Positions 26,373-64,000 of a stretch of DNA of 64,000 nucleotides are shown here, piece after piece. A program made the position numbers and the translations under genes. This stretch comes from Euglena gracilis (lineage: Eukaryota). The notes beneath the pieces were generated by a model. The model was not told the DNA's origin. It worked only from the letters and a program-made list of their open reading frames with translations, and ran no database searches. Position 1 is the first letter of the stretch. Each line of letters opens with the position of its first letter. The stretch spans positions 12,952,716 to 13,016,715 of the forward strand of contig CP154954.1 in NCBI GenBank assembly GCA_039621445.1, written 5' to 3'.

Positions 26373-28353
26373 ACCCTAACCCTAAGTTGTACCCTAACCC
26401 TATTCCATCATTAACGGAAAAAAAATTTGACCCCCCCTCCCAACTATAGGCCCCCCCCTGGGGGGCCCTATGGTTGGGAGCTGCCAATTTTGACCCCCCT
26501 CCAAACTCTAGCCCCCCACCCCCTGGGGGGCCGGGCCCAGTAGTTGGGAGCTACCAAAATTTTTAGCTTTGGTCTCTGGACAGGCTGGATTTACCCCAGG
26601 GGAGGGGAGTCCAAGGCGAGGGAGAAGCATTCAGGATGCAGCAGCCTCGTAATCATGTGAAACTCTCCGTTCTGACACGTACTCACATAACGCAAGCAAG
26701 GGCTTGAACTGTGTCAAACCTTGGGGGTAGCAGCAACCACCACTGGCACGCTTCCAACTGCTGGTGGTGCCAGAAGGGGGATTTCGTTTGGTTATATGTA
26801 TTGTGTAGATGCGCATTTTCCAACTGACCAACATCTGCGCATTCACACCTTCCTTTCTACCAGAAGGGCAATCTCTAACAAATACACCCTCGATTTCTGC
26901 CCTCGTCCTCTTACACACACCGGACCAATTAGAACCTTCCAATTGGAAACAGATGCCACATCACCGGACCGTAGGCCCCACCCCACTCAAAACCACCCAT
27001 CACATCCATACCACCCCAATTATTTTCTCCAAAATCCCTCAATTGCTGCCCCGGCGGGGTGAAGGGGTTGGGCAGCGTCAACTGGAGGTCACCTCACATT
27101 CTAGGGTAGGGTTTTGGGGATCGGTTGGGCAGGCACCCCTGTCCGGTGCCCGGTCTTGTTTTCTTTACCCTTTTTGCAAAAACCAACCCGACCCGGGGTA
27201 CCCCGGGCTACCCCCCTCGGGTGGTGTGCCTGCTAGGGGCAGGCATCTTATGGCACTCACCCCCACTCCCCCCCTGTCGGTAAAAACAAAACCTCACAAG
27301 CACTTCAAGGTTCACAAGCACTTTTGTAGTTTATGGCCAATCTCATGCCACCATCCGAGGTATGTGCCTCTCCCGTGCACCCATAGTGCCAGTCGGTGCC
27401 CGCCAGCTGAGAAACAATGAAGAAAACCTTGTGATCCCTGCACCATTGTGTCGTGCAATGAATCACGTCATCAAAAGTTGTTCAGTTTTGGGGTTAACGG
27501 AATGTTGCTTTTGACATATTATTGTTTTTCTGTTGGGTTTTTTAATTCGGCAGCCCATTTTGCTCACTCATTTGTGAGTGTCCAGTGGTTTTTCCATGGC
27601 CAAAGAGTATTTAAAACGTCTATCAATCGATAGGAGGGAGCAGGTTTGGAGGGACACGTTTCATTTGAGATAGCTGCCTGTGCAGCCATCTCCCAGCCGG
27701 AGCATTGCTATGTGCTTCAGAAAGCAACTGTTTTGCTTCATCATATTTGCCCGACAATGGTGGATTTAACCTCATCCCACACTTGGACGGCATTTGCAAC
27801 GTTCCGTTCCATCCGCCCCCACCCCCACCTTTTCCCAGGCAAGCCATCCTCCCAACAAAATGCTCTCCTCTCTGTCGCTGCCCTGCGGTGCCGATGTGCG
27901 GGTTGAGTGGACGGGCTCCAGAGCGGCTCGGACGGCGTGCAGGCGATTGCCGTGTTTAGCCGAAGGTTGGGGTATCCTTCTGTGACAATCATGTCCCGAA
28001 TCGTAATCTTCCCTGGATGGGTATGCTTTTTATGATTGCATTGGATTGCATACAATTTGTAAATATAGGACAAAATAGTACGCAGGGTCGTCGACCATTG
28101 TTTTTGTATGGGTCTGCAGCACGCCGCTTCCACCAGAGAGTGATTTCCAGAAACAAATTCATATGCTCGCGCCAACAATCAGCGATTTTTTATTCATTAC
28201 TCGTCTTTTTTTCCCCTGGATATTTCATTCTTGAGGGGGTTGTGGTCGTTGGGTTATAGAGCCATCGTTGTTGCTATTTACCATTTGGCCCAGTCGGCCC
28301 TCTCAGTGCCAACCAGGGCCGATTTTGCCGATACTCGTAGGGCTGGTGGGGAA

Positions 28354-28611
28354 CAGGCTTCTTTATAAGTCACCTGACCCCCCCCCCCGGGTGAGGGGGG
28401 ATGGGTGGGTGGATCCGGGCCGGACCCCCCTGGGGGGGGGTCCCGCGCCGGAGGCGCCGGGTATTCCTTTTCGGGGCGAAGCGCCAAAATTTTTTGAAAA
28501 TTGCCTTTAGCGGGCCCGATTTTGGGGGGGTCCCCCCCCAGGGGGGGGTCCCACACCACCCTGGGTGGGTGGGGGGGGACCCCCCCCCCGGCGGTCTTAA
28601 AAAGAAGCCTG
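28354..28611. mobile_element. hAT-type MITE, present in copy B and absent from copy C
   Basis: TIR caggcttctttataag / cttaaaaagaagcctg; 8-bp TSD gtggggaa (28346, 28612); single gtggggaa at paralog 57937. Confidence 0.95.
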
Positions 28612-29925
28612 GTGGGGAAGCTGCCACACCGCGTGCACCTCGTGCAGCACCGCATGCGCCGCATGGCGCACCGTGTGCACCATGTACATTTTTTCCAGAA
28701 ATTCTCTGCATGAAATTACTCACTTGATTTTGCCGTACTGAAGCTGGAAAAACTGTGCTGGCTGGATCCCTTGGACCCGGCTGGCACCCGAAAGCTGGCA
28801 AAAAGGCCCAAATACACCTGCCTTGGGTTTTTTCCCGGCCAGTTTATTGAGGTGGAAATTTAAATAACGACAAAAAAGGGAATTTGACAATTTTTTTTGG
28901 CCGTTATGGACCTCTTTTAATCTTTTTTTTTTTGGTTCTGGCCAGTTTCGCTGCCCTGTGAAGATTTTATTGACACTCACCCTCACCACTCCCACTCACT
29001 TTTTGGGGGAGTGTCAGCCATCCGAATGGCAGTGTTCGCTGGAAAAAACGGTGCTGGCTCGGACTCCCCGGCAGGGGTGGCGGCAGGGGGGGTCCAGGCT
29101 GAAGTCATCAAAAAGTCAAGTAACTGAATTCATCGAATATTCAAAATATTGTGTGTCAAAGAGTAAAAAGTATGGCATATTCTGTGACAAAAATTCCCAG
29201 CCTTGACGATGAAAAATGTATGACATTGTTACAAGTATCATTGTGTGGTTTTGAATCATGATTATTTTGTATTGGCATACCCTCCTGAACCTCCGGCCAA
29301 TTAAGTGCCGGCTGGAACACCAAATTCAGAATGAACCATGGAACTGTTAGGAGCCGTGTAAGGGACCACATATGCACAGTGGCCTGGGGCTGCTGAAGCT
29401 CTTGCAGTCCCATCACCGCCAGTTGGCCATCCAAGTCGGCAGAGCTTTTGCTGATAACTAAGGTTCATTTATTACCATTTGAACCAATTGCCATAGTTAA
29501 GGTGCATTTACTAATATTTGAACTCCAAGCCTCCAAGCCAATACACCTTTGTTGGGTTTTATACCAATTTTAAAAATATTTTATAATTATTCTATGTTCC
29601 ATTTTTTTTTTCATATTCTGGCTTTATGTGCAATAACGTGTTGTTGTTGTTGTTGTTGTTGTTGGTTTTTTCTGTCTTTTTTTGCTGCATTTGGCCAGGC
29701 AAAAATGCATTCCAACAACGTGTGAAGTGTTCCATGAGTCATTCCCAAGTTAAAGCGCGCCCACCTCACTGTTCCATACCGACAAAGGCTCTTCAAGGAC
29801 GAAAGGACATCCCCACCGACGTCACCGTTCATGTCCGTTAGCCCCGGCCTCCATTCCCTGGCTGATATGTCCCGCTGCAGGGTTCTCCTACAATGTAAAA
29901 GAGTGGTTATGAGTTTTTTTGTCGT

Positions 29926-29958
<33 letters not shown>

Positions 29959-30947
29959 GTGTGTGCTTGAGTGTGTCTGTCTGTATATTGACAAGCATAA
30001 ATAATTTGGGCGTCCAAAGTCGGGGGACCTAAATTCACTTGATATGAGAGGGTGAGTTCTTGCCAACAATATCAGAACAATAAGAACTCAGAACAATAAT
30101 AAAAATTGTACCGTGTGTTTGCCAAAAGCAGGCTGCTATTCCAGTATGACCCTGTGCTCGCCTTGCACACCCCACTCCCTCCAGCCCCGCCAGCTCGGAC
30201 AGCAGTGTTGGGACCCACGGTCCATTCGGCAGGAGCCCTCCGCTCACCCCGGCGGTGACCACGCCACCCGTTCTTCCACGGTGGTCGTGTGGCTCTGTTG
30301 ATTGCCACCGACTTCGCCTTATCATGAAAACCACACAACTGCCGATACTGGAATTCTTGTCCAGCTGAAGAGGTGGAAGGATTCTGAATTTGAGAAATGG
30401 AAAGGCAATGTAAAATAACCTTATTTCTTTTGTGCTTCCGAGAGTATACCGTAAAGTGCTTGGTGGAGGTCTTAAATGCATTTTTTTCTGAGGTAATAAA
30501 TGTTGCATAACAATTGGTTATTTACAATATTGCTTGTGGCAGTATACGTTTTCAGTAACGAGAAGCCTTGTCTTCTTTTCTTTCACACTGTCAAGTGTTT
30601 TTCCTACAGTTTTTTTTTTGAATATTTTTTTTAGGCTCTCAATCAGGTGTAAGGTTTTGTCACCAGGGTGCAATTGTGTGTGCAAAACAGATGCTATTGC
30701 CGAATTGTATGCCATGCCACAGATAGCCCCGCTTCTTGAGGAGCCTCCCCATTTCACTGCAAAACCCTCCGACGAGGGTTACCCCACTGCATCACAGACA
30801 CACAACCAGGTTTGTTTCTGTGACAATCATGTCCCGAATCGTACAGTGTCCCCTGGGAATCTCTCTCTCTCTCTCTCCTCTCTTCTCAATCGGTGTTGCT
30901 GGGGGTTGCCGACCATGTGTGGGTGCGTGTGTTGTCAGTCTGTTGTT

Positions 30948-31020
30948 GCGGTTTCGCCCCAGGCTGGCAGGTCGGGTATCGTCAGGGGTGACGACCCTGC
31001 CGACCCTCGTCCCCGACCGC
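30948..31020 (-). ncRNA. Type III hammerhead ribozyme (intact core)
   Basis: Minus strand reads GCGG-UC|GGGGACGA-[GGGUCGGCAGGG]-UCGUCACCC-CUGACGA-U-ACCCG-[ACCUGCCAGCC]-UGGGGC-GAAA-CCGC. It has the CUGANGA and GAAA boxes, a GUC site and three stems. The base of stem II is imperfect. Confidence 0.85.
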
Positions 31021-31300
31021 TCTTGTATGTGTGGTGCAGACCGTTAAAAACGAGCTCTGCGCCACCCTCCCAGGGGGGGGGGGTCGGGGGGCTGAAAAAA
31101 ATAGCCCCCGGAAAACAAGGCAGCGCAGGACGGAAAAATGGCTCCGCTACCTACGGGGCACCCCCGGGAACAGCACCATTTGGGGAGGGCTAGTCAAGGC
31201 CCTTTTGGTGCGGAGAAAGACAAAATTGCCGAAAAATACGGACAGTACCCGAAGGCGAGAGCGTGATCGGTGTGGTGGGCGTGTGTTGTCAGTCCATGTT

Positions 31301-31373
31301 GCGGTTTCGCCCCAAGCGGGCAGGTGGGGCATCGTTACGGGTGAAGACCCTGCCAACCCTCGTCCCCAACCGC
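31301..31373 (-). ncRNA. Type III hammerhead ribozyme, degenerate core
   Basis: Same scaffold with perfect stem II GCCCC/GGGGC and a GUU site, but the core reads GUAACGA. Confidence 0.7.
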
Positions 31374-31470
31374 TCTTGTCTGGGTGTTGTCAGCCTGGGT
31401 GTGTTGGTTGCTGGATGGCTGGCTGGACTCCGAGGGTGGGGTCCCCTCCGGCTTTTAGGAAACCCTTGCA

Positions 31471-31519
31471 TACCCCAGTACCCCAGTACCCCAGTACCCC
31501 AGTACCCCAGTACCCCAGT
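31471..31519. repeat. (TACCCCAG)6 octamer repeat (also 61581-61629)
   Basis: Direct reading. Confidence 0.95.
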
Positions 31520-34500
31520 GACACTGTTCATTCATTCGTTTTGTTTGAGAAGTTGTAGTTGGTCCGTTTACAATTTCGGTGCCGTTCCACCCAGCAGGAT
31601 GGACAGCGAAGCGGCCTGCTGCTGATAGCCAGTCTCCCCATTCCCTCGGTGCCCATGCCACGCCTCTGCCAATCGCGACCCTTTGCTTTGTTCATGACCC
31701 ATATTCGTTCAACTGTCCCTGGTTTGAAGCCAAGAAAATTCTTCAATGTCTTTTCAGAGGAGCCTTGGAAGCACAATCCAGTCATTGTTTTTCTGCTTTT
31801 CAAGTTGTATTTGCCGTCTTCCAGCATCCCCCCAACCAGCAGTTTCTTATTTTGGCTTGCTGGATCCCCGGATTCTGAAACAGCCAGAGAATCAGCAATT
31901 CATCAATGGCTAGTTCATTTTGACAAACAATCAGAAACATGTTTGTAGAAGCGTTTTTCTTGTGGCCAACCAACCCACGACCCCCACACTCAAGAGAAGT
32001 TTGGCCAGCTATTTTTTTTGTTTCTAACGTCTTTTTACAACGAGTTGCATAGTCGTCAGGGCATTTCTTTTTCGTGTGTCGTAAATGTTATGGCGTAATG
32101 TACACCATTTTTTTTTCTCAAAAAGGAGTTTAAAGTCAATTCCTTCAGTATTATTTTTAGGTTTGCTTGGAAACCAATTTGCAAAAATTTTGTCATGTGG
32201 ATACCAGGGACTGCGCCAACGGACCCCGTGCCATATGCTGACGACCCATCCCAGCACCTTCCTCTCGGCCTGAGAATGGAACGCCAAGTAAAAACCCTGT
32301 GTTATCAGTGGGGTTTGTCACCAAAGACATTGGCTGAGCAATGTATAATTTAATAAGGGACAATCAAAAAAGGTTGGGCAATGGATGCTTTCCCACCCCA
32401 TTTGAAATGGTACATCTGATATACAAAAGGCTTTGGGTCAATATATTATATTTTTTTGCATGCAGCTGTTCTTCGTTTTCACATTGCACACTGTTCCCAT
32501 TCACAAACCTTAAACAATTTACACTGAAAACAGGAAAAAAGGTAGCTGTGCATTTCATGAGGCAAACGAAAGAACAAGCAGCATGTTTTCCACAATTTCA
32601 GCCGAAGGGATGGATTGCGCAAATGCGTTACACTGACCATGTGCACATTTGCACACACCATCCATTTGTGTACAGACCCCGAGGCAGGTAAAAGCGAAAA
32701 CGTTCATCAAAAATTCCAGGGGAGAAGCAGGAGAGAAACAATGGGTGTAGGGTGTGTGTAGGGGGGAGGGTTCCGGGACTGTCGTGCATACCAGGGATTT
32801 TGTGTCGTGCAGAAATAAAACAGCCAAAAAAAAAGAAATTCGGCCAAAGCTGTGGAGTGACAGCCCCAAAAAAAGAGAATTCGCTCAGATCTCTCGCAGT
32901 CATGATCCCCCTCGATCCAATTTCTCAAAGTTCTGGAATTCCTTGCGAAGAAATAAAATTCCGTTAGTGTATGTGTTTGCGCACACCAACCAAAAGAAGT
33001 TTATTTGTGAGTTATGCCGTCCAAGTCAGTGAAAAAAAGTGTACTCCTGGCATTTCACCCAGTTGTCAGTTCCAGGTTAAATCAATTTCAATTCAAAATC
33101 AGTTTCAATCAATTTCAGTCAGTTTGGCACCCACCCACCCACTGTCGGAAAGGGCTGTTATGGCCAATATGGCTTTGGCCTTTATATTCCAGTGGTTGGC
33201 CATTCCCATGTTTTCCCTCCACCGCTTTTCCACATCACGGCCTCGGTAGCCATACGGCCACCGTGCAGGCCATATTTTTTTTTTAGGTCACCCCTCCTGC
33301 TACAAGTTCACATGTGCTGCTTCTCTTTTCCAATCACTCACATTGTCCATCACCCTTTCTTTCTTATCTCCCCCCATTCTCTTTCTGACTTCTGTTTCTG
33401 ATTCTTTCTTTTTTATATTTTTTTGAATTATTTTAATGCCGGAAAAAAATAGAAAAACAACGTAAAAAAAATAAAAAACACAAAAAAAAAAAAACGTAAA
33501 CAACAAAAAAAAAAAAAAAAAAAAAAAGTCAGGGGGATTGGAAAATTGCGATTCTTTTTGGAAGAGCATTTGGAACGCCCCTCGCACAATCTCCCATCAA
33601 CAACTATCCCAGATGATTCTGGGCCTGTTTCATTGGAACTTGGTGCTCCAGATTGGCGGATGTGTTGCGAGTGTGTTATTTGGGCAGCCAGACAGACAGG
33701 CAGACAAAGACAGAAAGAGTGAGAGGGAGGGGATAGGTGGATAGGGGATAGGTGGGTCTGCCAGGGCTTTCGGGAATCCCCAAAACAAACCCCAATGGGT
33801 AATGGGCGGTGGGTGGGGTGGTCGATCCCTAGGGGGGGGGCTGCACAGGCAGGTGGGATGGTCGACCAGATAGGTGGTCGACAACCCACCCATCCAAGCC
33901 CGCAGAGAAAATTCTGACCTTAAAACCAGTATTATGGGAAGGCCTTGCAGGTATGGGGGGGGGGGCACAAGGCTCTTGGGGTCCCCTGCTGGAATGCGGG
34001 GTTTCGGCTATTTTTGGCACGAAAGACCGACTTTTTCTAACCCCCGAAATGTGGGGACCTGCTGGGAGAAACCCTGGGTCGGTGCGCCTGGCAGGGGGCA
34101 TGGGTACCTTCCCCTTGTCTCTGAAAAAATACCTGATTTATATGCAAGAAAGGGAGGCAGACAGAGACAGATATTGGTTGTTTCATGCATTGCATTTCAT
34201 TTTTATAATTTCAATGTAGTTATCCTCTGACACAAATTGACCAAATATTCCGGTACCTGGGGCATGTCATTTTCCAAACCTTTTTTTGCACCGTTGCTTT
34301 TTGACATTCGGGCAGTCACCGTGAAGAATCTCGATGTCTGCTGGGTGGGAGAGAAAAAGGAAGGTCTCCCCGCCCTGTTGCCATCACTCAGCGATTGTCG
34401 CAAAGTCCATTTTCAGTCCAGAGGATAGTTGAGAAGAACGGATAGCTCCGGTTGCCACAGTATTTTTTTTATATTTAAGTTAAAACAGGCGCAATGAACC

Positions 34501-52202: not shown

Positions 52203-53219
52203 CAACCATGCCAACAGAAATGTATTTGTTTAGTCTCCAAAGCTGGTTGCTGTTTGTCTCTGCGGAGCACATTCTTAAATCTCTGTGGGTTAATGCCCAT
52301 TGGTTTCTTTGTGTGCCTCACAAATTGCACGGCATAGGCAGTTTGATGAAGTCTGACCGCTCTTTTGAAGGGCAAGGATGGATGGACGTTGTATGTTTCC
52401 AGAAAGGGTGGATTTATTTCCTTAAGGACCGCCCCCCTTTCGGCCAAAGGGCCGGCCAAGGGTCAGGCTGGGACTTGAACGGGGGCAAAATTTTAACAGT
52501 CAATAAAACACAGTTTTCGATGATTTGGGTGGATGGGCGATGGTTCAAGGGTGCCAGGAATCAATTTTTTTCCTGATGTCGACCTGTTCTCGCTGAAAAA
52601 TGCCAAAAATTCTTGCCCATTTTATTGTATATTTTTCACTGAGTGTGCTGGGACAGCAGAGTTTTTTTTTTATTTGCTTAAGGACCGCCCTGATGTTCAT
52701 GCATGGTTTTCACATACCATTGTTGCCCCACTCGCTTCTTTAATCGATGATTTGTTTGCCACATATTCTTTGCTGAAATGTCCCGCTCATGCTGCCAGGC
52801 GCCGTCGTTGGGTCGCTCACCTCAAGGCGCACCTGCATGCGGTGACATTGCCACCGCAAGTTGTGTGCACCCGATGGAACGCCTGGCGTGACATGGTTTC
52901 TGGTTGCGGAAAAGCAGAAGTCATGGTTGACCGCGCTTTGTGGCATCTAGACAACTTTCAATTGTGGGGCACGTTTCTTGCAGACGAAGCAAAGAAAATG
53001 CCGTGGAAGCCCAAGGAGTCAGAAAAGGGTAAGCAGAAATCCAAGGAGATCCCCCCGTTGTTGCATCGGGTTGCAAAGTCACAGGAAACCCATGGGAAGG
53101 GCTTGTTATTGCGGCTGGTTTTCATTTCAGACCATGGGGAGCCTTTGGATATTTGTTTGAATTGTGCGCAGGCTGACCGTCCTGTAGCTTGTTATTTGTA
53201 TGACTATTTGATGAACCTC

Positions 53220-53293
53220 AACCAAGCTTTTGCTCAATCACGTTGTTACAATGGTTTTTTTGACATAATCTTTTTGAGCAATCGCTTTTCATC
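53220..53293 (+). other. Candidate non-conventional (non GT-AG) intron, 74 nt
   Basis: tcaa direct repeat; stem aagc..ttgctcaa / ttgagcaa..gctt; C|A at both junctions. Removal joins the two ORFs as YLMNLKALWDSTISSAQFSPRLEEQL. Confidence 0.65.
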
Positions 53294-53370
53294 AAGGCGC
53301 TTTGGGACAGCACAATTTCATCTGCGCAGTTTTCACCCCGCTTGGAAGAGCAACTGACCCTTCTTTCATC

Positions 53371-53406
53371 GTTCAGGACCCTTTTTTTCAAAAGGGTCCT
53401 AGTTCA
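53371..53406 (+). other. Candidate non-conventional intron, 36 nt
   Basis: CAG at +4..+6 and CTA at -8..-6; 11-bp stem aggaccctttt / aaaagggtcct. In-frame removal gives LLSSVQAQFLRD. Confidence 0.55.
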
Positions 53407-54120
53407 GGTGCAAGCCCAGTTTCTGCGTGATATGTTCATCAGAGTTTTGAAATCGTTGCAGGACGGTTTGAATGTTCGCTTTGAGAAAAGCAAGGAACAA
53501 ATTGAGTTTTATCGTCAACTTCGTGTGCTCAACCCAAATAATTTGCCTCTTATGTCATCAGCTCCCACAGATTACTCAGCGTTGCGTTTGGATGGATGTG
53601 ATGAAGATTTCATACAATATTTGCAATGCACAAAAAGGGATATTGACGGCCCAGAGGAGTTAATTGAATGGTGGAAGACACACCGGACATCTCTTTTTCG
53701 TGAACGTGTTTTGTTTCTGATTTCCTCCCCGGTCGCCACTGCAAGTGTGGAAAGGTTTTTTTCCATTTGCGGACAGCTGGATGCCGATCAGTGGGCTTTG
53801 TCACATAATGCACGGAGGTTGGAATTCATGCTTCAATTTAATGGTGATTTGTCTGGGCGTTTCACCTCCCTCTGTGTGGGTTTCTGTGTAAACAAACAGG
53901 GCACTTTTTACATGGAAACCCGCACACCCACCCTGTTCTAAAATCAAATGTGAGTGTTGCATTGCACCCTGTGAGCTTTATTGTAAATCCAGAGAAGATG
54001 TTGCTGTTTTTTTTAATGTCTCAAGAATATAAGGGCTCAGTTGTTGTCAAATGTGGTCATGGAGTCAATCAGACAAACATAATTGAGCCAAGGGGTACAT
54101 TGTGTGATTGACAAGACCTC

Positions 54121-54841: not shown

Positions 54842-57800
54842 TTCTTTTCAGGGTCTGAGATCGTAAAAATTTTCAAGCCTATTGTACACGTTCAAGAATG
54901 TGGGTGAGTGAATGGACAAAGACCACTCAGTGTATATAGATGCGGCAGTGTTTCGCTTGCCCGACAGCCCATCATCGTGTTTAAATAAGAACATCGTATT
55001 GTACGGCCACTTCAAGACCAGCGTTCGAATCTTTACGTGGGAATCCGCCCACAACTACATTCAGTTTGATTCAAACCAAACGTCATGGACATAGACCATT
55101 ACTCACTGTATTGTAAATTATTTCTACGCGGGTTTCCTCACACTGGTGAATCACACATGATTTGTCCTTCCTTATTAAAGGAAATCAGTCTTATTCTCAA
55201 GTTGGGCGGGTTCCCGTGTATATCATGGAATACTGGTGTTCAGAATGCTTAAATTCAAAGCCGGTGGGTGCAACAGGACCCAGAGTGGTTCGTACGGCGC
55301 AATCCTGAGCGCAATTACAGGTAAGACTGCCCTCCAAAACCACAGGATTTGGGATTTTGTCGCAATTCAGGGTGTTTAGTGGTACAAGTGGACGTTACAA
55401 TTCTCGCGATTTGTCCTCGCTCGCTAACGGGATGTACCGCTGCGACGTGACCTCCAGGAAAGCCCCGTATTCTGAAGGGATGTGCTGCGACTTGTGCGGA
55501 AAACCGCACAAGCTGCAGCACCAGGTCGTGGAAAGTGACTGCTTTTGGGTGGTGTTCGGGGAGCAACGGCCAGCCCTACGGATCTGTCTCGCGCACCTGT
55601 CAGGGTTCGTAAACCAGCGGTGTACCACCAACCACCCTGAGCCGCAAAAGGGTCCCAGGTAACCGTGGTGGGGAGGGGTGTATGGCACGACATCGTGCGG
55701 CCCAGACGGGCGTATGTTCCGGGTCCCTCCGGTGGCCCGGAGCCACCCCCCTCGGCGGAACTGCTACCAGCTTCCGCTTCACTTCTCCTCCGTCACGCCA
55801 TCCACAGAAAAGCGAGACAGGGACCGGTACGGACGACAACGCCGCGTACCGCGGGTATCCTGAGAGGGTACCCATCCATTCAGGGTTCGGTCAAAAAAAA
55901 GTAGGCAAGTCACCGCACCGGCGGGAACCAGTGGCGTTGCCCGCTGGGGTGGGCGGTCCTAGGGAGCTCGGCCACAAGAGGCCGTTACAGCCACTTGCCC
56001 AACCTACCTCCCTGAAAATCGCACTTGGGCCGTTCAACTTTTGCGGAACCACTGTTGGTGGTCACGTCGGCGGTTACACCAAATGAAGGCCTCGCGATCC
56101 AGATCCTGTACAAAAGCGAAGGGGGGGGGTGGCATCGGATCCGTACAGAGGAGCGCTTCACCGCTCATCGCTGGTATGTTGTACGCGGAAACCCGCACAC
56201 AACGTCCCCATCCTGAGACCACACCCACGCCCCAACCTCGCTCCCTACTCCTCTCCCTCAACAACACACACACGCCTGTCCGCTCCTCACACCCTTAAAA
56301 CCGTCCCCTACACATTCTGGTCGCAACTACTTTTGTACCACCAAACATCCAGAACGCGGAACACACACGACACGCTTGGGCAGGTCTGGGCAGCCTGTCC
56401 TGGTGGTGCGGGGAGGTCAAAGGACCACCCGGGCTCCTCACTGTCTTTTGTGTAGTCAGCACCCAAACCGTGTGTGCGGATTCTGCCCTCGTCCTCTTAC
56501 ACACACCGGACCAATTAGAACCTTCCAATTGGAAACAGATGCCACATCACCGGACCGTAGGCCCCACCCCACTCAAAACCACCCATCACATCCATACCAC
56601 CCCACCCATCACATCCATACCACCCCAATTATTTTCTCCAAAATCCCTCAATTGCTGCCCCGGCAGGGTGAAGGGGTTGGGCAGCGTCAACTGGAGGTCA
56701 CCTCACATTCTAGGGTAGGGTTTTGGGGACCGGTTGGGCAGGCACCCCTGTCCGGTGCCCGGTCTTGTTTTCTTTACCCTTTTTGCAAAAACCCACCCGA
56801 CCCTGGGTACCCCGGGCTACCCCCCTCGGGTGGTGTGCCTGCTATGGGCAGGCACCTTATGGCACCCACCCCCACCCCCCCCTGTCGGTAAAAAAAAACA
56901 ACCTCACAAGCACTTAAAGGTTCGCAAGCACTTTTGTAGTTTATGGCCAATTTCATGCCACCATCCGAGGTGTGTGCCTCTCCCGTGCACCCATAGTGCC
57001 AGTCGGTGCCCGCCAGCTGAGAAACAATGAAGAAAACCTTGTGATCCCTGCACCATTGTGTCGTGCAATGAATCACATCATCAAAAGTTGTTCAGTTTTG
57101 GGGCTAACGGAATGTTGTTTTTGACGTATTATTGTTTTTCTGTTGGGTTTTTTAATTTGGCAGCCCATTTTGCTCACTCATTTGTTGTTGTCCAGTGGTC
57201 ACCATTGTCGAGCAAATATGATGAAACAAAACAGTTGCTTTCTGAAGCACATAGCAATGCTCTGGCTGGGAGATGGCTGCACAGGCAGCTATCTCAAATG
57301 AAACGTGTCCCTACAAACCTGCTCCCTCCTATCGAATGATAGACTTTTTAAATACTCTTTGGCCATGGAAAAACGATTTAACCTCAACCCACACTTGGAC
57401 GGCATTTGCAACATTCCATCCGCCCCCACCCCCACGTTTTCCCAGGCAAGCCATCCTCCCAACAAAATGCTCTCCTCTCTGTTGCTGCCCTGCGGTGCTG
57501 ATGTGCGGGTTGAGTGGACGGGCTCCAGAGCGGCTCGGACGGCGTGCAGGCGATTGCCGTGTTTAACCGAAGGTTGGGGTGGTATTAGCCTTCCCTGGGT
57601 GGGTATGCTTTTTATGGTTGCATTGGATTGCATACAATTTGGAAATATAGGACAAAATAGTACGCCGGGTCGTCGACCATTGTTTTTGTATGGGTCTGCC
57701 GCACGCCATCGTCAAATGCTTCCACCAGACAGTGATTTCCAGAAACAAATTCATATGCTCGGGCCAACAATCAGCGATTTTTTCTTCATTACTCGTCTTT

Positions 57801-58999
57801 TTTTCCCCTGGAGATTTCATTCTTGAGGGGGTTTGTGGTCGTTGGGTTATAGAGGCATCGTTGTTGCTATTTACCATTGGCCCAGTCGCCCTCTCAGTGC
57901 CAACGAGGGCCGATTTTGCCGATACCCGTAGGGCTGGTGGGGAAGCTTGGGAATGCGGTTGTCCAGGAATCGGTTCCCGCACCCTCAATCATGAACTCCT
58001 TGGGGCCAAAGGGAATATGAAAATGAATGAAAATGGATTTGTGCGGCACAGGAAAAAATGACAGATGGGTGACACATGGCAACCCACTGGGTATTGGCAA
58101 CAGACGGTGCAGGAAGGCAGGAGAGGCATCCCCCACAGGAGACATTTCCTGTGCATCCACATGATGTACATTGCAAAATATTTAATAATTTCGAAATAGG
58201 AACACTCTGTCAGAGTCAGGGGCAGGTGCTTTTTTAGTCTTCCCCCCCCCAGGGGAGAGGGGGGCAGAGTGGGCCAGGGGCCAGGGGGTTCCCCCAGGGG
58301 GGGGGTCCAGCTCAGAGGCTGGAAAATTTGGGCTGGCTAGAAAAAGACTCCTGGCTGACGCCCCCCCCCCCAGGGGGTCCTGGACTGGAGCTGGGCGCGT
58401 GCACCTCGTGCAGCACCGCATGCGCCGCATGGCGCACCGTGTGCACCATGTACATTTTTTTCCAGAAATTCTCTGCATGAAATTACTCAGTTGATTTTGC
58501 CGTGCTGAAGCTGGAAAAACTGTGCTGGCTGGATCCCTTGGACCCGGCTGGCACCCGAAAGCTGGCAAAAAGGCCCAAATACACCTGTCTTGGGTTTTTT
58601 TCCGGCCAGTTTATTGAGGTGTGAATTTAAATAACGACAAAAAAGGGAATTTGACATTCTTTTTGGCCATTATGGACCTCTTTTAATCATTTTTTTTGGT
58701 TCTGGCCGGTTTTGCTGCCCTGTGAAGATTTTATTGACACTCACTCACTCTTTGGGGGGGGGGTGTCAGCCATCCGAATGGCAGTTGTTCGCTTGAAAAA
58801 ACGGTGCTGGCTCGGACTCCCCGGCAGGGGTGGGGGCAGGGGGGTCCATTCCCAGCCTTGACGATGAAAAATGTATGACATTGTTACAAGTATCATTGTG
58901 TGGTTTTGAATCATGATTATTTTGGATTGGCATACCCTCCTGAACCTCCGGCCAATTACGTGCCGGCTGGAACACCAAATTCAGAATGAACCATGGAAC

Positions 59000-59108
59000 C
59001 AGGCTTCTTTTTAAGTCAGCAGCCCCCCCTCCCCCCCCCCGGGGGGGGAGGGGGGTGGGTGGGTCCGTGCCGGACCCCCCGGGGGGGGGGGTCCCGCGCA
59101 GGAGACGC
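59000..59108. mobile_element. Truncated copy of the 28354 MITE family, copy C only
   Basis: Starts caggcttctttttaagtca; absent at paralog 29345. Confidence 0.7.
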
Positions 59109-61056
59109 TCGTGTAAGGGACCACATATGCACAGTGGCCTGGGGCTGCTGAAGCTCTTGCAGTCCCATCACCGCCAGTTGGCCATCCAAGTCGGCAGAGC
59201 TCTTGCTGATAACTAAGGTTCATTTATTACCATTTGAACCAATTGCCATAGTTAAGGTGCATTTACTAATATTCGAACTCCAAGCCTCCAAGCCAATACA
59301 CCTTTGTTGGGTTTTATACCAATTTTAAAAATGTTTTATATTTGTTCTATGTTCCATTTTTTTCACATTCTGGCTTTATGTGCAATAACATAACTCCTCC
59401 CTCCCGGTTTCTGATGATTCTAGGTCCAGTCCATCTTCCCTGACCTTTTGGATCCTTTTTGCCAGGGCTCCTAGTTTCAAAGGTACCAACTCCTTCCACA
59501 TTGGTTGACCAGTTTGACTGAGCCCAGTGTGTGTGATTGCGTATTTTTGCAACTTTTGGTCCACCGCCCTTGCGTGACGAAAAACTTTGAGCATCTTCCC
59601 ACTTGTTCGTTTTGTGTTGTTGTTGTTGTTGTTGGTTTTTCCTGTCTTTTTTTGCTGCATTTGGCCAGGCAAAAATGCATTCCAACAACGTGTGAAGTGT
59701 TCCATGGGTCATTCCCAAGTTAAAGCGCGCCCACCTCACTGCTCCATACCAGCAAAGGCTCTTCAAGGACGAAAGGACATCCCCACCGACGTCACCGTTC
59801 ATGTCTGTTAGCCCCGGCCTCCATTCCCTGGCTGATATGTCCCGCTGCAGGGTTCTCCTGTAATGTAAAAGAGTGGTTATGAGTTTTTTTGTCATTGTTG
59901 TGTGTGTGTGTGTGTGCTTGAGTGTGTCTGTCTGTATATTGACAAGCATAAATAATTTGGGCGTCCAAAGTCGGGGGACAGGGCGCTGTAAGTTGGGTAG
60001 GATGTAAGTTTTTGGTGTGTAATTTTGGACAGCAACATATTATGCAAGCTGTTTATGAGTTGCACCGAATGTTTATTCTCACATGGGGCAGGGGATTGGT
60101 TAGGTTCCGGTTCCGGGTTCCCCCCATTGGTATTTTTCCCTCCTAAATTCGCTTGATATGAGAGGGAGTTCTTGCCAACAATATCAGAACAATAAGAACT
60201 CAGAACAATAATAAAAATTGTACCGTGTGTTTGTCAAAAGCAGGCTGCTATTCCAGTGTGACCCTGTCCTTGCCTTGCACACCCCACTCCCTCCAGCCCC
60301 GCCAGCTCGGACAGCAGTGTTGGGACCCACGGTCCATTCGGCAGGAGCCCTCCGCTCACCCCGGCGGTGACTACGCCACCCGTTCTTCCACGGTGGTCGT
60401 GTGGCTCTGTTGATTGCCACCGACTTCGCCTTATCATGAAAACCACACAACTGCCGATACTGGAATTCTTGTCCAGCTGAAGAGGTGGAAGGTTTCTGAA
60501 TTTTAGAAATGGAAAGGCAATGTAAAATAACCGTATTGCTTTAGTGCTTCCGAGAGTATACCGTAAAGTGCTTGGTGGAGGTCTTAAATGCATTTTTTTC
60601 TGAGGTAATAAATGTTGCATAACAATTGGTTATTTACAATATTGCTTGTGGCAGTATACGTTTTCAGTAAAGAGAAGCCTTGTCTTCTTTTCTTGCACAC
60701 TGTCAAGTGTTTTTCCTACAGTTTTTTTTGAATATTTTTTTTAGGCTCTCAATCAGGTGTAAGGTTTTGTCACCACGGTGCAATTGTGTGTGCAAAACAG
60801 ATGCTATTGCCGAATTGTATGCCATGCCACAGATAGCCCCGCTTCTTGAGGAGCCTCCCCATTTCACTGCAAAACCCTCCGACGAGGGTTACCCCACTGC
60901 ATCACAAGACAACCAGGTTTGTTTCTGTGACAATCATGTCTTGAATCGTACAGTGTCCCCTGGGAATCTCTCTCTCTCTCTCTCCTCTCTCTTCTGAATC
61001 GGTGTTGCTGGGGGTTGCCGACCATGTGTGGGTGCGTGTGTTGTCAGTCTATTGTT

Positions 61057-61129
61057 GCGGTTTCGCCCCAGGCTGGCAGGTCGGGTATCGTCAGGGGTGA
61101 CGACCCTGCCGACCCTCGTCCCCGACCGC
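61057..61129 (-). ncRNA. Type III hammerhead ribozyme (intact core), paralog of 30948-31020
   Basis: Identical by eye to 30948-31020. Confidence 0.85.
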
Positions 61130-61410
61130 TCTTGTATGTGTGGTGCAGACCGTTAAAAACGAGCTCTGCGCCACCCTCCCAGGGGGCGGGGTCGGGGGGC
61201 TGAAAAAAAAATGGCCCCCAGAAAACAAGGCAGCGCGGGACTGAAAAATGGCTCCGCTACCTACGGGGCACCCCCCGGAACAGCACCATTTGGGGAGGGC
61301 TAGTCAAGGCCCTTTTGGTGCGGAGAAAGGCAAAATTGCCGAAAAATACGGACAGTACCCGAAGGCGAGAGCGTGATCGGTGTGGTGGGCGTGTGTTGTC
61401 AGTCCATGTT

Positions 61411-61483
61411 GCGGTTTCGCCCCAAGCGGGCAGGTGGGGCATCGTTACGGGTGAAGACCCTGCCAACCCTCGTCCCCAACCGC
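61411..61483 (-). ncRNA. Type III hammerhead ribozyme, degenerate core, paralog of 31301-31373
   Basis: Identical by eye to 31301-31373. Confidence 0.7.
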
Positions 61484-64000
61484 TCTTGTCTGGGTGTTGT
61501 CAGCCTGGGTGGGTTGGTTGCTGGATGGCTGGCTGGACTCCGAGGGTGGGGTCCCCTCCGTCTTTTAGAAAACCCTTGCATACCCCAGTACCCCAGTACC
61601 CCAATACCCCAGTACCCCAGTACCCCAGTGGCACTGTTCATTCATTCGTTTTGTTTGAGAAGTTGTAGTTGGTCCGTTTACAATTTCGGTGCCGTTCCAC
61701 CCAGCAGGATGGACAGCGAAGCCACCTGCTGCTGATAGCCAGTCTCCCCATTCCCTCGGTGCCCATGCCACGCCTCTGCCAATCGCGACCCTTTGCTTTG
61801 TTCATGACCCGTATTCGTTCAACTGTCCCTGGTTTGAAGCCAAGAAAATTATTCAATGTCTTTTCAGAGGAGCCTTGGAAGCACAATCCAGTCATTTTTT
61901 TTTCTGCTTTTCAAGTTGTATTTGCCGTCTTCCAGCAACCCCCCAACCAGCAGTTTCTTATTTTGGCTTGCTGGATCCCCGGATTCTGAAACAGCCAGAG
62001 AATCAGCAATTCATCAAGCGTTTTTATTGTGGCCAACCAACCCACGACCCCCACACTCAAGAGAAGTTTGGCCAGCTATTTTTTTTGTTTCTAACGTCTT
62101 TCTACAACGAGTTGCATGGTCGTCAGGGCATTTCTTTTTGTAAGTGTGTGTCGTAAATGTTATGGCGTAATGTACACCACTTTTTTTCTCAAAAAGGAGT
62201 TTGAAGTCAATTCCTTCAGTATTATTTTTAGGTTTGCTTGGAAACCAATTTGCAAAAATTTTGTCATGTTGATACCAGGGACTGCGCCAACGGACCCCGT
62301 GCCATATGCTGACGACACATCCCAGCACCTTCCTCTCGGCCTGAGAATGGAACGCCAAGTAAAAACCCTTGTGTTATCAGTGGGGTTTGTCACCAAAGAC
62401 ATTGGCTGAGCAATGTATAATTTAATAAGGGACAATCAAAAAAGGCTTTGGGTGATATACAAAAGGCTTTGGGTCAATATTTCAACCTCATTGTGCAAAG
62501 TGCATAACCCCCCAGGAGCACCAGGAAAAAACAGCGCACATGCCCTTGCGGGGGGGGGGGGTAAGCAAAAAATGACTCAGAAAAAATTGCTGTTAAGGAA
62601 TTTTCTTTTGTCGGTGCGAATGCTCGCAATGTTTTTCTACGACCATCCTGTGTGTCCGCTCTATGTGCAATTTTGTATGTTTTATCTCCTTCACCAATCA
62701 TTTTCATGAAAATGATGTAAAAACAGAGCTATATTATATTTTTTTTTGCATGCAGCTGTTCTTCGTTTTCACATTGCACACTGTTCCCATTCACAAACCT
62801 TAAACAATTTACACTGAAAACAGGAAAAAAGGTAGCTGTACATTTCATGAGGCAAACGAAAGAACAAGCAGCATGTTTTCCACAATTTCAGCCGAAGGGA
62901 TGGATTGCGCAAATGCGTTACACTGACCATGTGCATATTTGCACACACCATCCATTTGTGTACAGACCCCGAGGCAGGTAAAAGCAAAAACGTTCATCAA
63001 AAATTCCAGGGAGAAGCAGGAGAGAAACAATGGGTGTAGGGTGTGTGTAGGGGGGAGGGTTCCGGGACTGTCGTGCATATCAGGGATTTTGTGTCGTGCA
63101 GAAATAAAAAAGCCAAAAAAAGAAATTCGGCCAAAGTTGTGGAGTGACAGCCCCAAAAAAAGAGAATTCGCTCAGATCTCTCGCACTCGTGAACCCCCTC
63201 GATCCAATTTCTCAAAGTTCTTGACTTCCTTGCGAAGAAATAAAATTCCGGACGTGTATGTGTTTGCGCACACCAAACAAAAGAAGTTTATTTGTGAGTT
63301 ATGCCGTCCAAGTCAGTGAAAAAAGTGTGCTCCTGGCATTTCATTCAGTTTCAGTTCCAGGTTAAATCAATTTCAATTCAAAATCAGTTTCAATCAATTT
63401 CAGTCAGTTTGGCACCCACCCACCCACTGTCGGAAAGGGCTGTTGGGGCCAATATGGCTTTGGTCTTTACATTCCATTGGTCGGCCATTCCCATGTTTTC
63501 CCTCCACCGCGTGTCCAGATCACAGCCTCGGTAGCCATATAGCCACCGTGCAGGCCATGTTTGCCGCCTTTTTTTTTAGGTCACCCCTCCTGCTACAAGT
63601 TCACATGTGCTGCTTCTCTTTTCCAGTCACTCCCATTGTCCATCACCCTTTCTTATCTCCCCCAATTCTCTTTCTGGATTCTGTTTCTGATTCTTTCTTT
63701 TTTATATTTATATTTATTTGAATTATTTTAATGCCAGAAAATAGAACAACGTCAGTGGGATGTGGGGAAAATTGCGATTCTTTTTGGAAGAGCATTTGGA
63801 AGGCCCCTCACACATGCTCCCATCAACAACTATCCCAGATGATTCTGGGCCTGTTCCACTGGAACTTGGTGCTCCAGATTGGCGGATGTGTTGCAAGTGT
63901 GTTATTTGGGCAGCCAGACAGACAGGCAGACAAATAAACCGAGACAGAAAGAGTGAGAGGGAGGGGTGGGATAGGTGGGTCTGGGGCTTTCGGGAATCCC

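Follow-up and report, generated by a model that had tools for sequence, protein, structure and literature searches.

The repeat insertion and its surroundings

The hammerhead-like motif lies on the minus strand at 31020..30948 (73 nt) of the window, that is, of the whole stretch of 64,000 nucleotides analysed here; the segment at 30961-31007 singled out by the original prediction is its middle part. The motif forms one of two related modules of a repeat insertion on the minus strand at 30917..31393, which consists of about 1.3 units of a 353-nt period, in the order module A, a spacer of about 233 nt, and module B. The insertion is recognised by a direct repeat of 120 nt with 86% identity at an offset of 353 nt and by the summed depth of matching genomic contigs, a figure that does not give a copy number: it is 110-260 in the flanks and climbs to 10^4-10^5.9 inside. 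The repeat unit has a GC content of 61%. A viroid-like compact fold was considered for this copy and rejected, the 353-nt unit giving z = -0.62 against shuffles.

The hammerhead modules are bracketed by three direct repeats of the 10-mer CTGACAACAC, located on the minus strand at 30929..30938 and at 31283-31292 and 31384-31393. This 10-mer has six matches in the window (duplicates included) against 0.12 expected, with a spacing of 101 nt around copy A, and a smaller sub-unit, mobile or tandem, may have its borders there. In other family members, a further copy of the 10-mer beyond 30917 is revealed by the loose ends of contigs and reads.

The insertion is part of a segmental duplication that measures at least about 7 kb and the two copies of which (26895-33780 and 56481-64000, that is, roughly 26.9-33.8 kb and 56.5-64.0 kb) lie 30 kb apart. 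The duplicated blocks are 87-99% identical, with 97.3% identity for the block that includes the motif (30028-31906 versus 60142-62017). A 175-bp stretch is inverted between the two copies (27588-27762 versus 57374-57200), and many stretches in the rest of the two window halves are linked by weaker similarity, of 75-85%.

Simple repeats lie close to the insertion on both sides: a perfect 8-nt minisatellite, TACCCCAG x 6.1, at 31471-31519, about 80 nt away (its duplicate lies near 61580), and a (TC)15 microsatellite on the other side, at 30860-30887. Homopolymer runs of G or C are unusually common: those of at least 9 nt number 52 in the 64 kb, including one in the repeat spacer at about 31067-31085, and the observed-to-expected ratios of the window are 0.65 for CpG and 0.54 for TpA. 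The frequency of homopolymers and the dinucleotide bias could be a trait of the genome or of other repeat families. A Pfam search of 20 ORFs yielded only two matches, both sub-threshold (hAT dimerisation and WXXGXW), and no gene was recognised near the insertion. The first of these matches, at 17.1 bits, belongs to decayed frames of a hAT-type transposase at 52524-53938 on the plus strand; the nearest Atlas clusters of this ORF contain hAT dimerisation proteins from mixed eukaryotes (score 0.95). tRNA genes were sought and none was found.

Anatomy of the hammerhead-like modules

Read 5' to 3' on the minus strand, the module at 30948..31020 (copy B1) has the sequence GCGGUC/GGGGACGA-GGGUCGGCAGGG-UCGUC(A)CCC-CUGACGA-U-ACCCG-ACCUGCCAGCCU-GGGGC-GAAA-CCGC, with the predicted cleavage site marked by the slash and a bulged nucleotide in brackets. 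Stem III comprises 5 bp formed by GCGGU on the 5' side and ACCGC on the 3' side, and is followed by a GUC site with C17; stem I comprises 8 bp and one bulged A, with GGGGACGA as the 5' strand and UCGUC-A-CCC as the 3' strand. Placed relative to the core and stem III, the predicted scissile bond (31014..31015, minus strand) lies between C31015, position 17, and G31014, position 1.1. The core box C3-A9, at 30985..30979, is CUGACGA and agrees with the hammerhead pattern CUGANGA, and the same box is found in the segmental duplicate B2. In copy A as in copy B, the GAAA box (G12-A14 plus A15.1), the A15.1-U16.1 pair and H17 are all present, with GAAAC pairing with GCGGU. With loops closing stems I and II and an open stem III, the topology is that of type III hammerheads. 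Loop 1 occupies 30995..31006 on the minus strand, where C31002 is replaced by U in the family majority (G to A at 31002 on the plus strand), and loop 2, at 30961..30972 on the same strand, is complementary to it according to a pairing computation.

The core is followed by an additional U at 30978, between A9 and position 10.1 (core and U together, 30978..30985, minus strand). The original prediction had listed this U, and it is indeed carried by all four copies in the window. Because of the insertion, a G10.1-C11.1 pair directly after A9 is absent in every copy; copy A and the family majority have the G-C pair at 10.1-11.1 after the inserted U, whereas B has A·C. Over the core and the extra U, the sequencing runs contain no variant at 5% or more except for a 1-base deletion at 30984, seen in 4 of 50 reads of the RNA run X24. 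Stem II of B1 is weak: the 5' strand, ACCCG at 30973..30977 on the minus strand, forms A·C at 10.1-11.1 and G·G on top, leaving 3 bp, whereas the majority letters in the sequencing runs, G at 30977 and C at 30973, yield GCCCC/GGGGC.

Copy A1, at 31301..31373, lies 353 nt upstream of B1 on the same strand, within the 120-nt direct repeat. It has a GUU site, the core GUAACGA, an intact stem II (GCCCC/GGGGC, 5 bp versus 3 bp in B), a C·U mismatch in stem I, GGGUUGGCAGGG as loop 1 and ACCUGCCCGCUU as loop 2. Nine of the 73 positions separate A from B: the cleavage nucleotide, one position in loop 1, one in stem I (where a pair is lost in A), two in the core, two in stem II and two in loop 2. The cleavage nucleotide, U17 in A and C17 in B, is of an allowed kind in both. 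The core changes C3G and G5A remove A1 and its duplicate A2 from the CUGANGA pattern and, given the established requirements for C3 and G5, would render copy A catalytically dead. Thus, judged by their sequences, both window copies are defective, each in a different way, A through its dead core and B through its weakened stem II.

The other two copies, B2 at 61057..61129 and A2 at 61411..61483, both on the minus strand, are segmental duplicates identical over the domain to B1 and A1, respectively, so that the four copies amount to two independent observations. The complementary segments GGCAGG and CCUGCC of the two loops, originally described as intact in all four copies, are present in all four, but come from only two independent sequences.

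The family in genomic DNA and RNA reads

In the genomic DNA run X1, which carries the same species label, 1684 Logan contig pieces match the insertion at 88% or better. Over the ribozyme, the depths of these contigs sum to 4.8-6.2x10^5; most of the spacer has 3x10^4-1.5x10^5, and the flanks have 110-260. These values show that the repeat is very abundant and that its hammerhead module is several-fold commoner than the spacer.

At the nine positions that distinguish A from B, the majority of the family has the letter of B at six and that of A at three. The letters of B prevail at the cleavage site (C), in stem I (G), at both core positions and at two positions of loop 2, with no variant at 5% or more, although an absent variant is no proof of identity. 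The letters of A prevail at G10.1 (30977; summed depth 508,970.1 of 510,096.1), at the C closing stem II (30973; 483,709.1 of 485,482.8) and at the U in loop 1 (31002; 404,826.7 of 406,313.8). The majority form accordingly combines a GUC site, an intact stem I, the CUGACGA core, the extra U, the G10.1-C11.1 pair, a 5-bp stem II, loop 1 GGGUUGGCAGGG and loop 2 ACCUGCCAGCCU; the loop letters that the original prediction had proposed as a consensus match these majority letters. By its sequence, the majority form appears to be a better hammerhead than either window copy and nearer to the hammerhead consensus. This form is the strongest argument for the descent of the family from a real ribozyme, and we consider it quite probable that the hammerhead reading is right at the level of the family.

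Over the dead core of A (31330-31349), the contig depth sums to about 4x10^4 and no variant reaches 5%, so that the dead-core variant itself is multi-copy. Apparently, the inactive version of the module was amplified too, perhaps as part of an A-spacer-B dimer. Searches for further copies with IUPAC patterns in which the loops or the variable sites were left free produced no matches in the collections viral_contigs, metagenome_contigs and genome_contigs.

Three raw RNA runs with the same species label contain 30, 19 and 112 matching reads. Among these 161 reads, similarity to the locus reaches 99% or more in one at most and is 88-99% in the others, and the share of matched RNA that runs on into unlike sequence is 0.65-1.0, which indicates that the transcripts come from other copies in other contexts. 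The reads of all three runs have the majority letters (in X24, 53/53, 52/52 and 48/48 at three diagnostic places). In X24, reads with the first mate on the plus strand prevail by about 10:1, which, given the usual type of stranded library, fits minus-strand RNA, that is, RNA of the ribozyme sense. The depth in X24 shows no dip at the cleavage site (44, 37.6 and 34 in successive bins), and no pile-up of read starts or ends was found there among the 19-112 reads per run, a pattern that circular or religated RNA would share. Because the reads cross the site without a dip, the expressed copies of the majority type appear to be mostly uncleaved or religated.

Loop complementarity and competing folds

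Each window copy can form six contiguous Watson-Crick pairs between the loops, GGCAGG with CCUGCC; beyond these come a mismatch, which is C·A in B and U·C in A, and three to four more pairs, with duplex energies of -17.8 kcal/mol for B and -15.3 for A. Both copies thus have at least the four Watson-Crick pairs between loop 1 and loop 2 by which pseudoknot-type hammerheads are recognised. When loop 1 of A is combined with loop 2 of B, which reproduces the majority letters and restores the U-A pair between the loops, 11 contiguous Watson-Crick and G-U pairs with -21.8 kcal/mol are obtained. The 10-bp loop helix of the original prediction had joined the same two loops; it is consistent with the majority form, where the run extends to 11 pairs, but not with the individual window copies, each of which has six.

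The significance of this complementarity depends on the sequences compared. Since loop 1 is G-rich and loop 2 is C-rich, runs of six pairs are common in shuffled loops: among 20,000 shuffles, a run of at least six Watson-Crick pairs occurs in 6.4% (B) and 5.1% (A), and the observed duplex energy is reached in 1.0% (B) and 3.9% (A) of 4,000 shuffles. The run of 11 pairs from the majority loops is reached in 47 of 50,000 shuffles. As support against a chance match, the complementarity is therefore of mixed value, the six pairs of the window copies being attained by 5-6% of the shuffled loops. Between the two independent sequences, A and B, there is no compensatory double change; their differences at paired positions are one replacement of G-C by G·U and two single changes, each of which breaks the central pair in one copy. 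The family sequencing reads contain no loop variants at 5% or more.

If the central 6 bp form while stems I and II are in place, the linkers are 5 nt and 1 nt in loop 1 and 1 nt and 5 nt in loop 2. In pseudoknots, linkers of 1 nt and 5 nt are the classic arrangement by which the shallow and deep grooves are bridged in a helix of 6-7 bp, and the central 6 bp are, by this geometry, a plausible pseudoknot of realistic dimensions. With a helix of 10-11 bp, one nucleotide would have to bridge an entire helical turn, which we judge to be sterically implausible as long as both stems stand. The long Watson-Crick kissing helix originally proposed would thus have to shrink to about 6 bp to be plausible.

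Moreover, the same complementarity can build a different structure. The core (UGACGA) offers a second partner to the 3' strand of stem I (UCGUCA), so that GGCAGGGUCGUCA can pair with UGACGAU...CCUGCC in a nested hairpin, and the complementarity of the loops alone is therefore no sign of a kissing contact. This hairpin, in which the core is buried, is the minimum free energy structure of copy B (-33.8 kcal/mol, 28% of the ensemble). The hammerhead fold of B without the pseudoknot has -19.1 kcal/mol, and a loop helix of 6 bp would contribute about -10 more, with any pseudoknot penalty left aside; because the energies exclude this penalty, they do not rank the hairpin and pseudoknot states against each other. 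In folds of growing prefixes, stem I is the best structure at 35 nt, before the core has been transcribed, and this order of formation allows a kinetic route to the active fold.

These observations raise the alternative that the family is a true hammerhead family, in which the loop complementarity serves the long nested hairpin and not a pseudoknot. The hairpin would consist of 10-11 bp, an internal loop and a 7-bp GUCGUCA/UGACGAU helix, and could be the stable conformation of the RNA with the ribozyme switched off, or function as a hairpin in DNA or in a small RNA, with the active fold either relying on other contacts or being slow. Apart from the folding energy of copy B, this alternative accounts well for the length of the complementarity: a helix longer than about 6-7 bp should not fit two 12-nt loops, yet the majority is complementary over 11 positions, and the extra length would make sense only in a nested helix. 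The RNA reads that span the cleavage site without a dip are also in keeping with it. However, stem I can form ahead of the core, the linkers around the central 6 bp would have the geometry expected of a pseudoknot, and the published type III pseudoknot hammerheads, in the accounts given in PMC3088659 and PMC7936874, share the same logic. Furthermore, the changes in copy A damage the hairpin and the hammerhead to the same extent, so that no differential conservation favours either structure. We consider it somewhat unlikely that a hairpin takes the place of the pseudoknot.

Chance level and covariance model scores

The alternative that no ribozyme exists, and that a GC-rich repeat with an internal palindrome mimics CUGANGA, GAAA and the pairings, has to be judged against the chance level of the motif. 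We used a descriptor comprising CUGANGA, 0-1 extra nucleotide, stem II, GAAA, stem III with A15.1-U16.1, H17 and stem I. In the 64-kb window, this descriptor has only two sites, the two B copies. With the observed stem lengths, 1 of 1000 dinucleotide shuffles of the window contains a match, and a relaxed version of the descriptor matches 5 of 200 shuffles. A chance match within the window is therefore improbable, although in a scan of very many windows this level alone is insufficient, since such matches will be met there.

Rfam gives no match for the whole window at gathering thresholds, and an E-value scan over 2 kb detected no ribozyme family. In a scan of 111 nt, Hammerhead_3 (RF00008) scored 12.1 bits (E=4.8), far under the gathering score of 48.5, with an alignment that covers the core, stem III and 3 bp of stem I. 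Such a score speaks for a mimic, as do RNA reads in which no cleavage signature appears. The 12 bits, where 48.5 are required, also show that variants of this kind are overlooked by the standard covariance model. Conservation offers no help either, being uninformative at such a high copy number. Against mimicry, besides the rarity of matches at the observed stem lengths, stands the majority form, which adds the G10.1-C11.1 pair and a 5-bp stem II that the descriptor does not demand. In addition, periodic modules of about 350 nt are described as a known habitat of genomic hammerheads (PMC7229834, PMC7761336). Taken together, the data support the conclusion that the motif in the window is a real hammerhead-like type III motif and not a random match, and we consider it unlikely that the family never included a ribozyme.

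That the module instead regulates a host gene at this site as an active hammerhead, for example in an intron or UTR, is highly improbable: some RNA reads do cover the region, but no more than one of them is 99% or more alike to the locus and the rest are from other copies, the core of A is dead, stem II of B is weak, and no gene is recognised nearby.

Probable nature of the element

The reading we prefer is that the locus holds a dimer, now decayed, of a retrozyme-like repeat that is very abundant, has a period of 353 nt and carries a minus-strand type III hammerhead with complementary loops that form a pseudoknot of about 6 bp; we assign this reading, as a whole, a probability of about 0.5. 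Of its parts, the descent of the locus from a retrozyme-like family of type III hammerheads is probable, as far as sequence comparison can tell, and the pseudoknot of about 6 bp is plausible.

A switch between two states, with the short pseudoknot in the nascent, active fold and the long hairpin at rest, would most likely account for the dual complementarity. Stems I and II would fold first, during transcription; the central GGCAGG and CCUGCC segments would then pair into a pseudoknot of about 6 bp with linkers of 1 nt and 5 nt. By analogy with published cases, this pseudoknot would hold stems I and II side by side and so permit cleavage after C17 at cellular Mg2+. The same segments, together with the pairing of UCGUCA with UGACGA, could later refold into the long hairpin, in which the core is buried; this inactive state could protect a unit-length or circular RNA.

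A bolder version of the preferred reading holds that the family represents an undescribed class of short, high-copy, retrozyme-like elements of type III with a period of about 350 nt, in which a pseudoknot of about 6 bp activates the ribozyme, whereas the helix of 10-11 bp and the UCGUCA/UGACGA pairing lock the core in the mature, possibly circular RNA. We regard this version as rather unlikely; if true, no natural hammerhead would have a longer pairing between its loops, and the ribozyme would come with an on/off device of its own. The stakes at the locus itself appear low, because both copies are degenerate and both odd features have published precedents. For the family, if it is active, they are higher: it would be a natural case of one pair of complementary loops serving both an active pseudoknot and an inactive hairpin, and such dual loops would help to explain how circular-RNA elements strike a balance between cleavage and persistence, and to design switchable ribozymes.

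Comparison with known hammerheads and retrozymes

No publication describing this family was found in the main-text literature, and short motif strings sought there gave only two unrelated primer matches; supplements, such as Figure S4 of PMC3088659, may hold closer examples. The principle of loop pairing is well represented. In about 40% of hammerhead representatives, among all three types, stems I and II are reported to be joined by pseudoknots of at least 4 pairs (Perreault 2011, PMC3088659), so that the idea of a Watson-Crick contact between the loops is not new. According to the same source, pseudoknots of 4-6 bp are needed for fast cleavage, with activity abolished by disruption and rescued by compensation, and a pseudoknot hammerhead's crystal structure contains a pseudoknot helix of 6 bp (PMC11300833). 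Atypical type III hammerheads with long helices and Watson-Crick contacts that link loop 1 to loop 2 are described in insect genomes and HDV-like RNAs (De la Pena 2021, PMC7936874).

The present motif resembles these hammerheads in the Watson-Crick pairing between loops I and II, which Perreault proposed to hold the stems parallel, in the type III topology and in having helices and loops longer than those of plant and viroid hammerheads. It differs in the potential length of the pseudoknot, published as 4-6 bp and here 6 in the window copies and 11 in the majority, nearly all of the two 12-nt loops. Further differences are the lack of an internal loop or extra hairpin in helix I, the extra U after A9, and the fact that the motif is known from sequence alone.

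The extra U has precedents of its own. In 2001, de la Pena and Flores reportedly described an A10 between A9 and G10.1 in the CChMVd (+) hammerhead. According to a review, replacement of this extra A10 by U raised trans-cleavage 3-4 fold (PMC3705267), and in the hammerheads of Penelope elements a nucleotide between 9 and 10.1 is conserved (PMC4209133). As the original prediction had assumed for some natural hammerheads, an extra residue after A9 is tolerated, and judging from these two sources a U at this place is compatible with catalysis. CChMVd (+) and Penelope hammerheads are thus like the present one in having one inserted nucleotide at the same place, with U tolerated or favourable. The former, from a viroid, is of type III and its loop contacts are non-canonical; the latter are minimal type I motifs, and neither, as described there, has complementary loops.

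Among retrozymes, the plant LTR elements contain type III hammerheads spaced by 600-1000 nt (PMC7761336, PMC7229834); their hallmarks are LTRs of about 350 bp, a tRNA-Met PBS, a PPT and a 4-bp TSD. With these, the present element shares a type III hammerhead in direct repeats that flank a non-coding stretch, the high GC content and the multi-copy state (PMC7761336). It departs from them in size, with a period of 353 nt and repeats of about 120 nt versus periods of about 600-1000 nt and repeats of about 350 (PMC7761336). It also has no match to the tRNA-Met PBS motif in 30917-31393 when up to 2 mismatches are allowed.

The metazoan tandem repeats of 150-450 nt carry type I hammerheads (PMC7761336, PMC7229834). 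The non-LTR retrozymes and satellites of newt, axolotl, mussel and coral resemble the present family in their period of 170-400 nt, high copy number, tandem or partially tandem arrangement and transcription (PMC7229834). As characterised in that source, they have one type I hammerhead per unit, with a weak helix III and less than 50% GC, whereas the motif here is of type III with a 5-bp helix III, although the 353-nt period fits. The axolotl retrozyme Rtz353 has the same size of 353 nt, but its hammerhead is of type I, and we take the agreement as a coincidence. From its sequence, the element appears to fit neither the plant LTR nor the metazoan class of retrozymes cleanly. An active family would combine the architecture of type III with a short-period, high-copy lifestyle for which all descriptions so far concern type I hammerheads.
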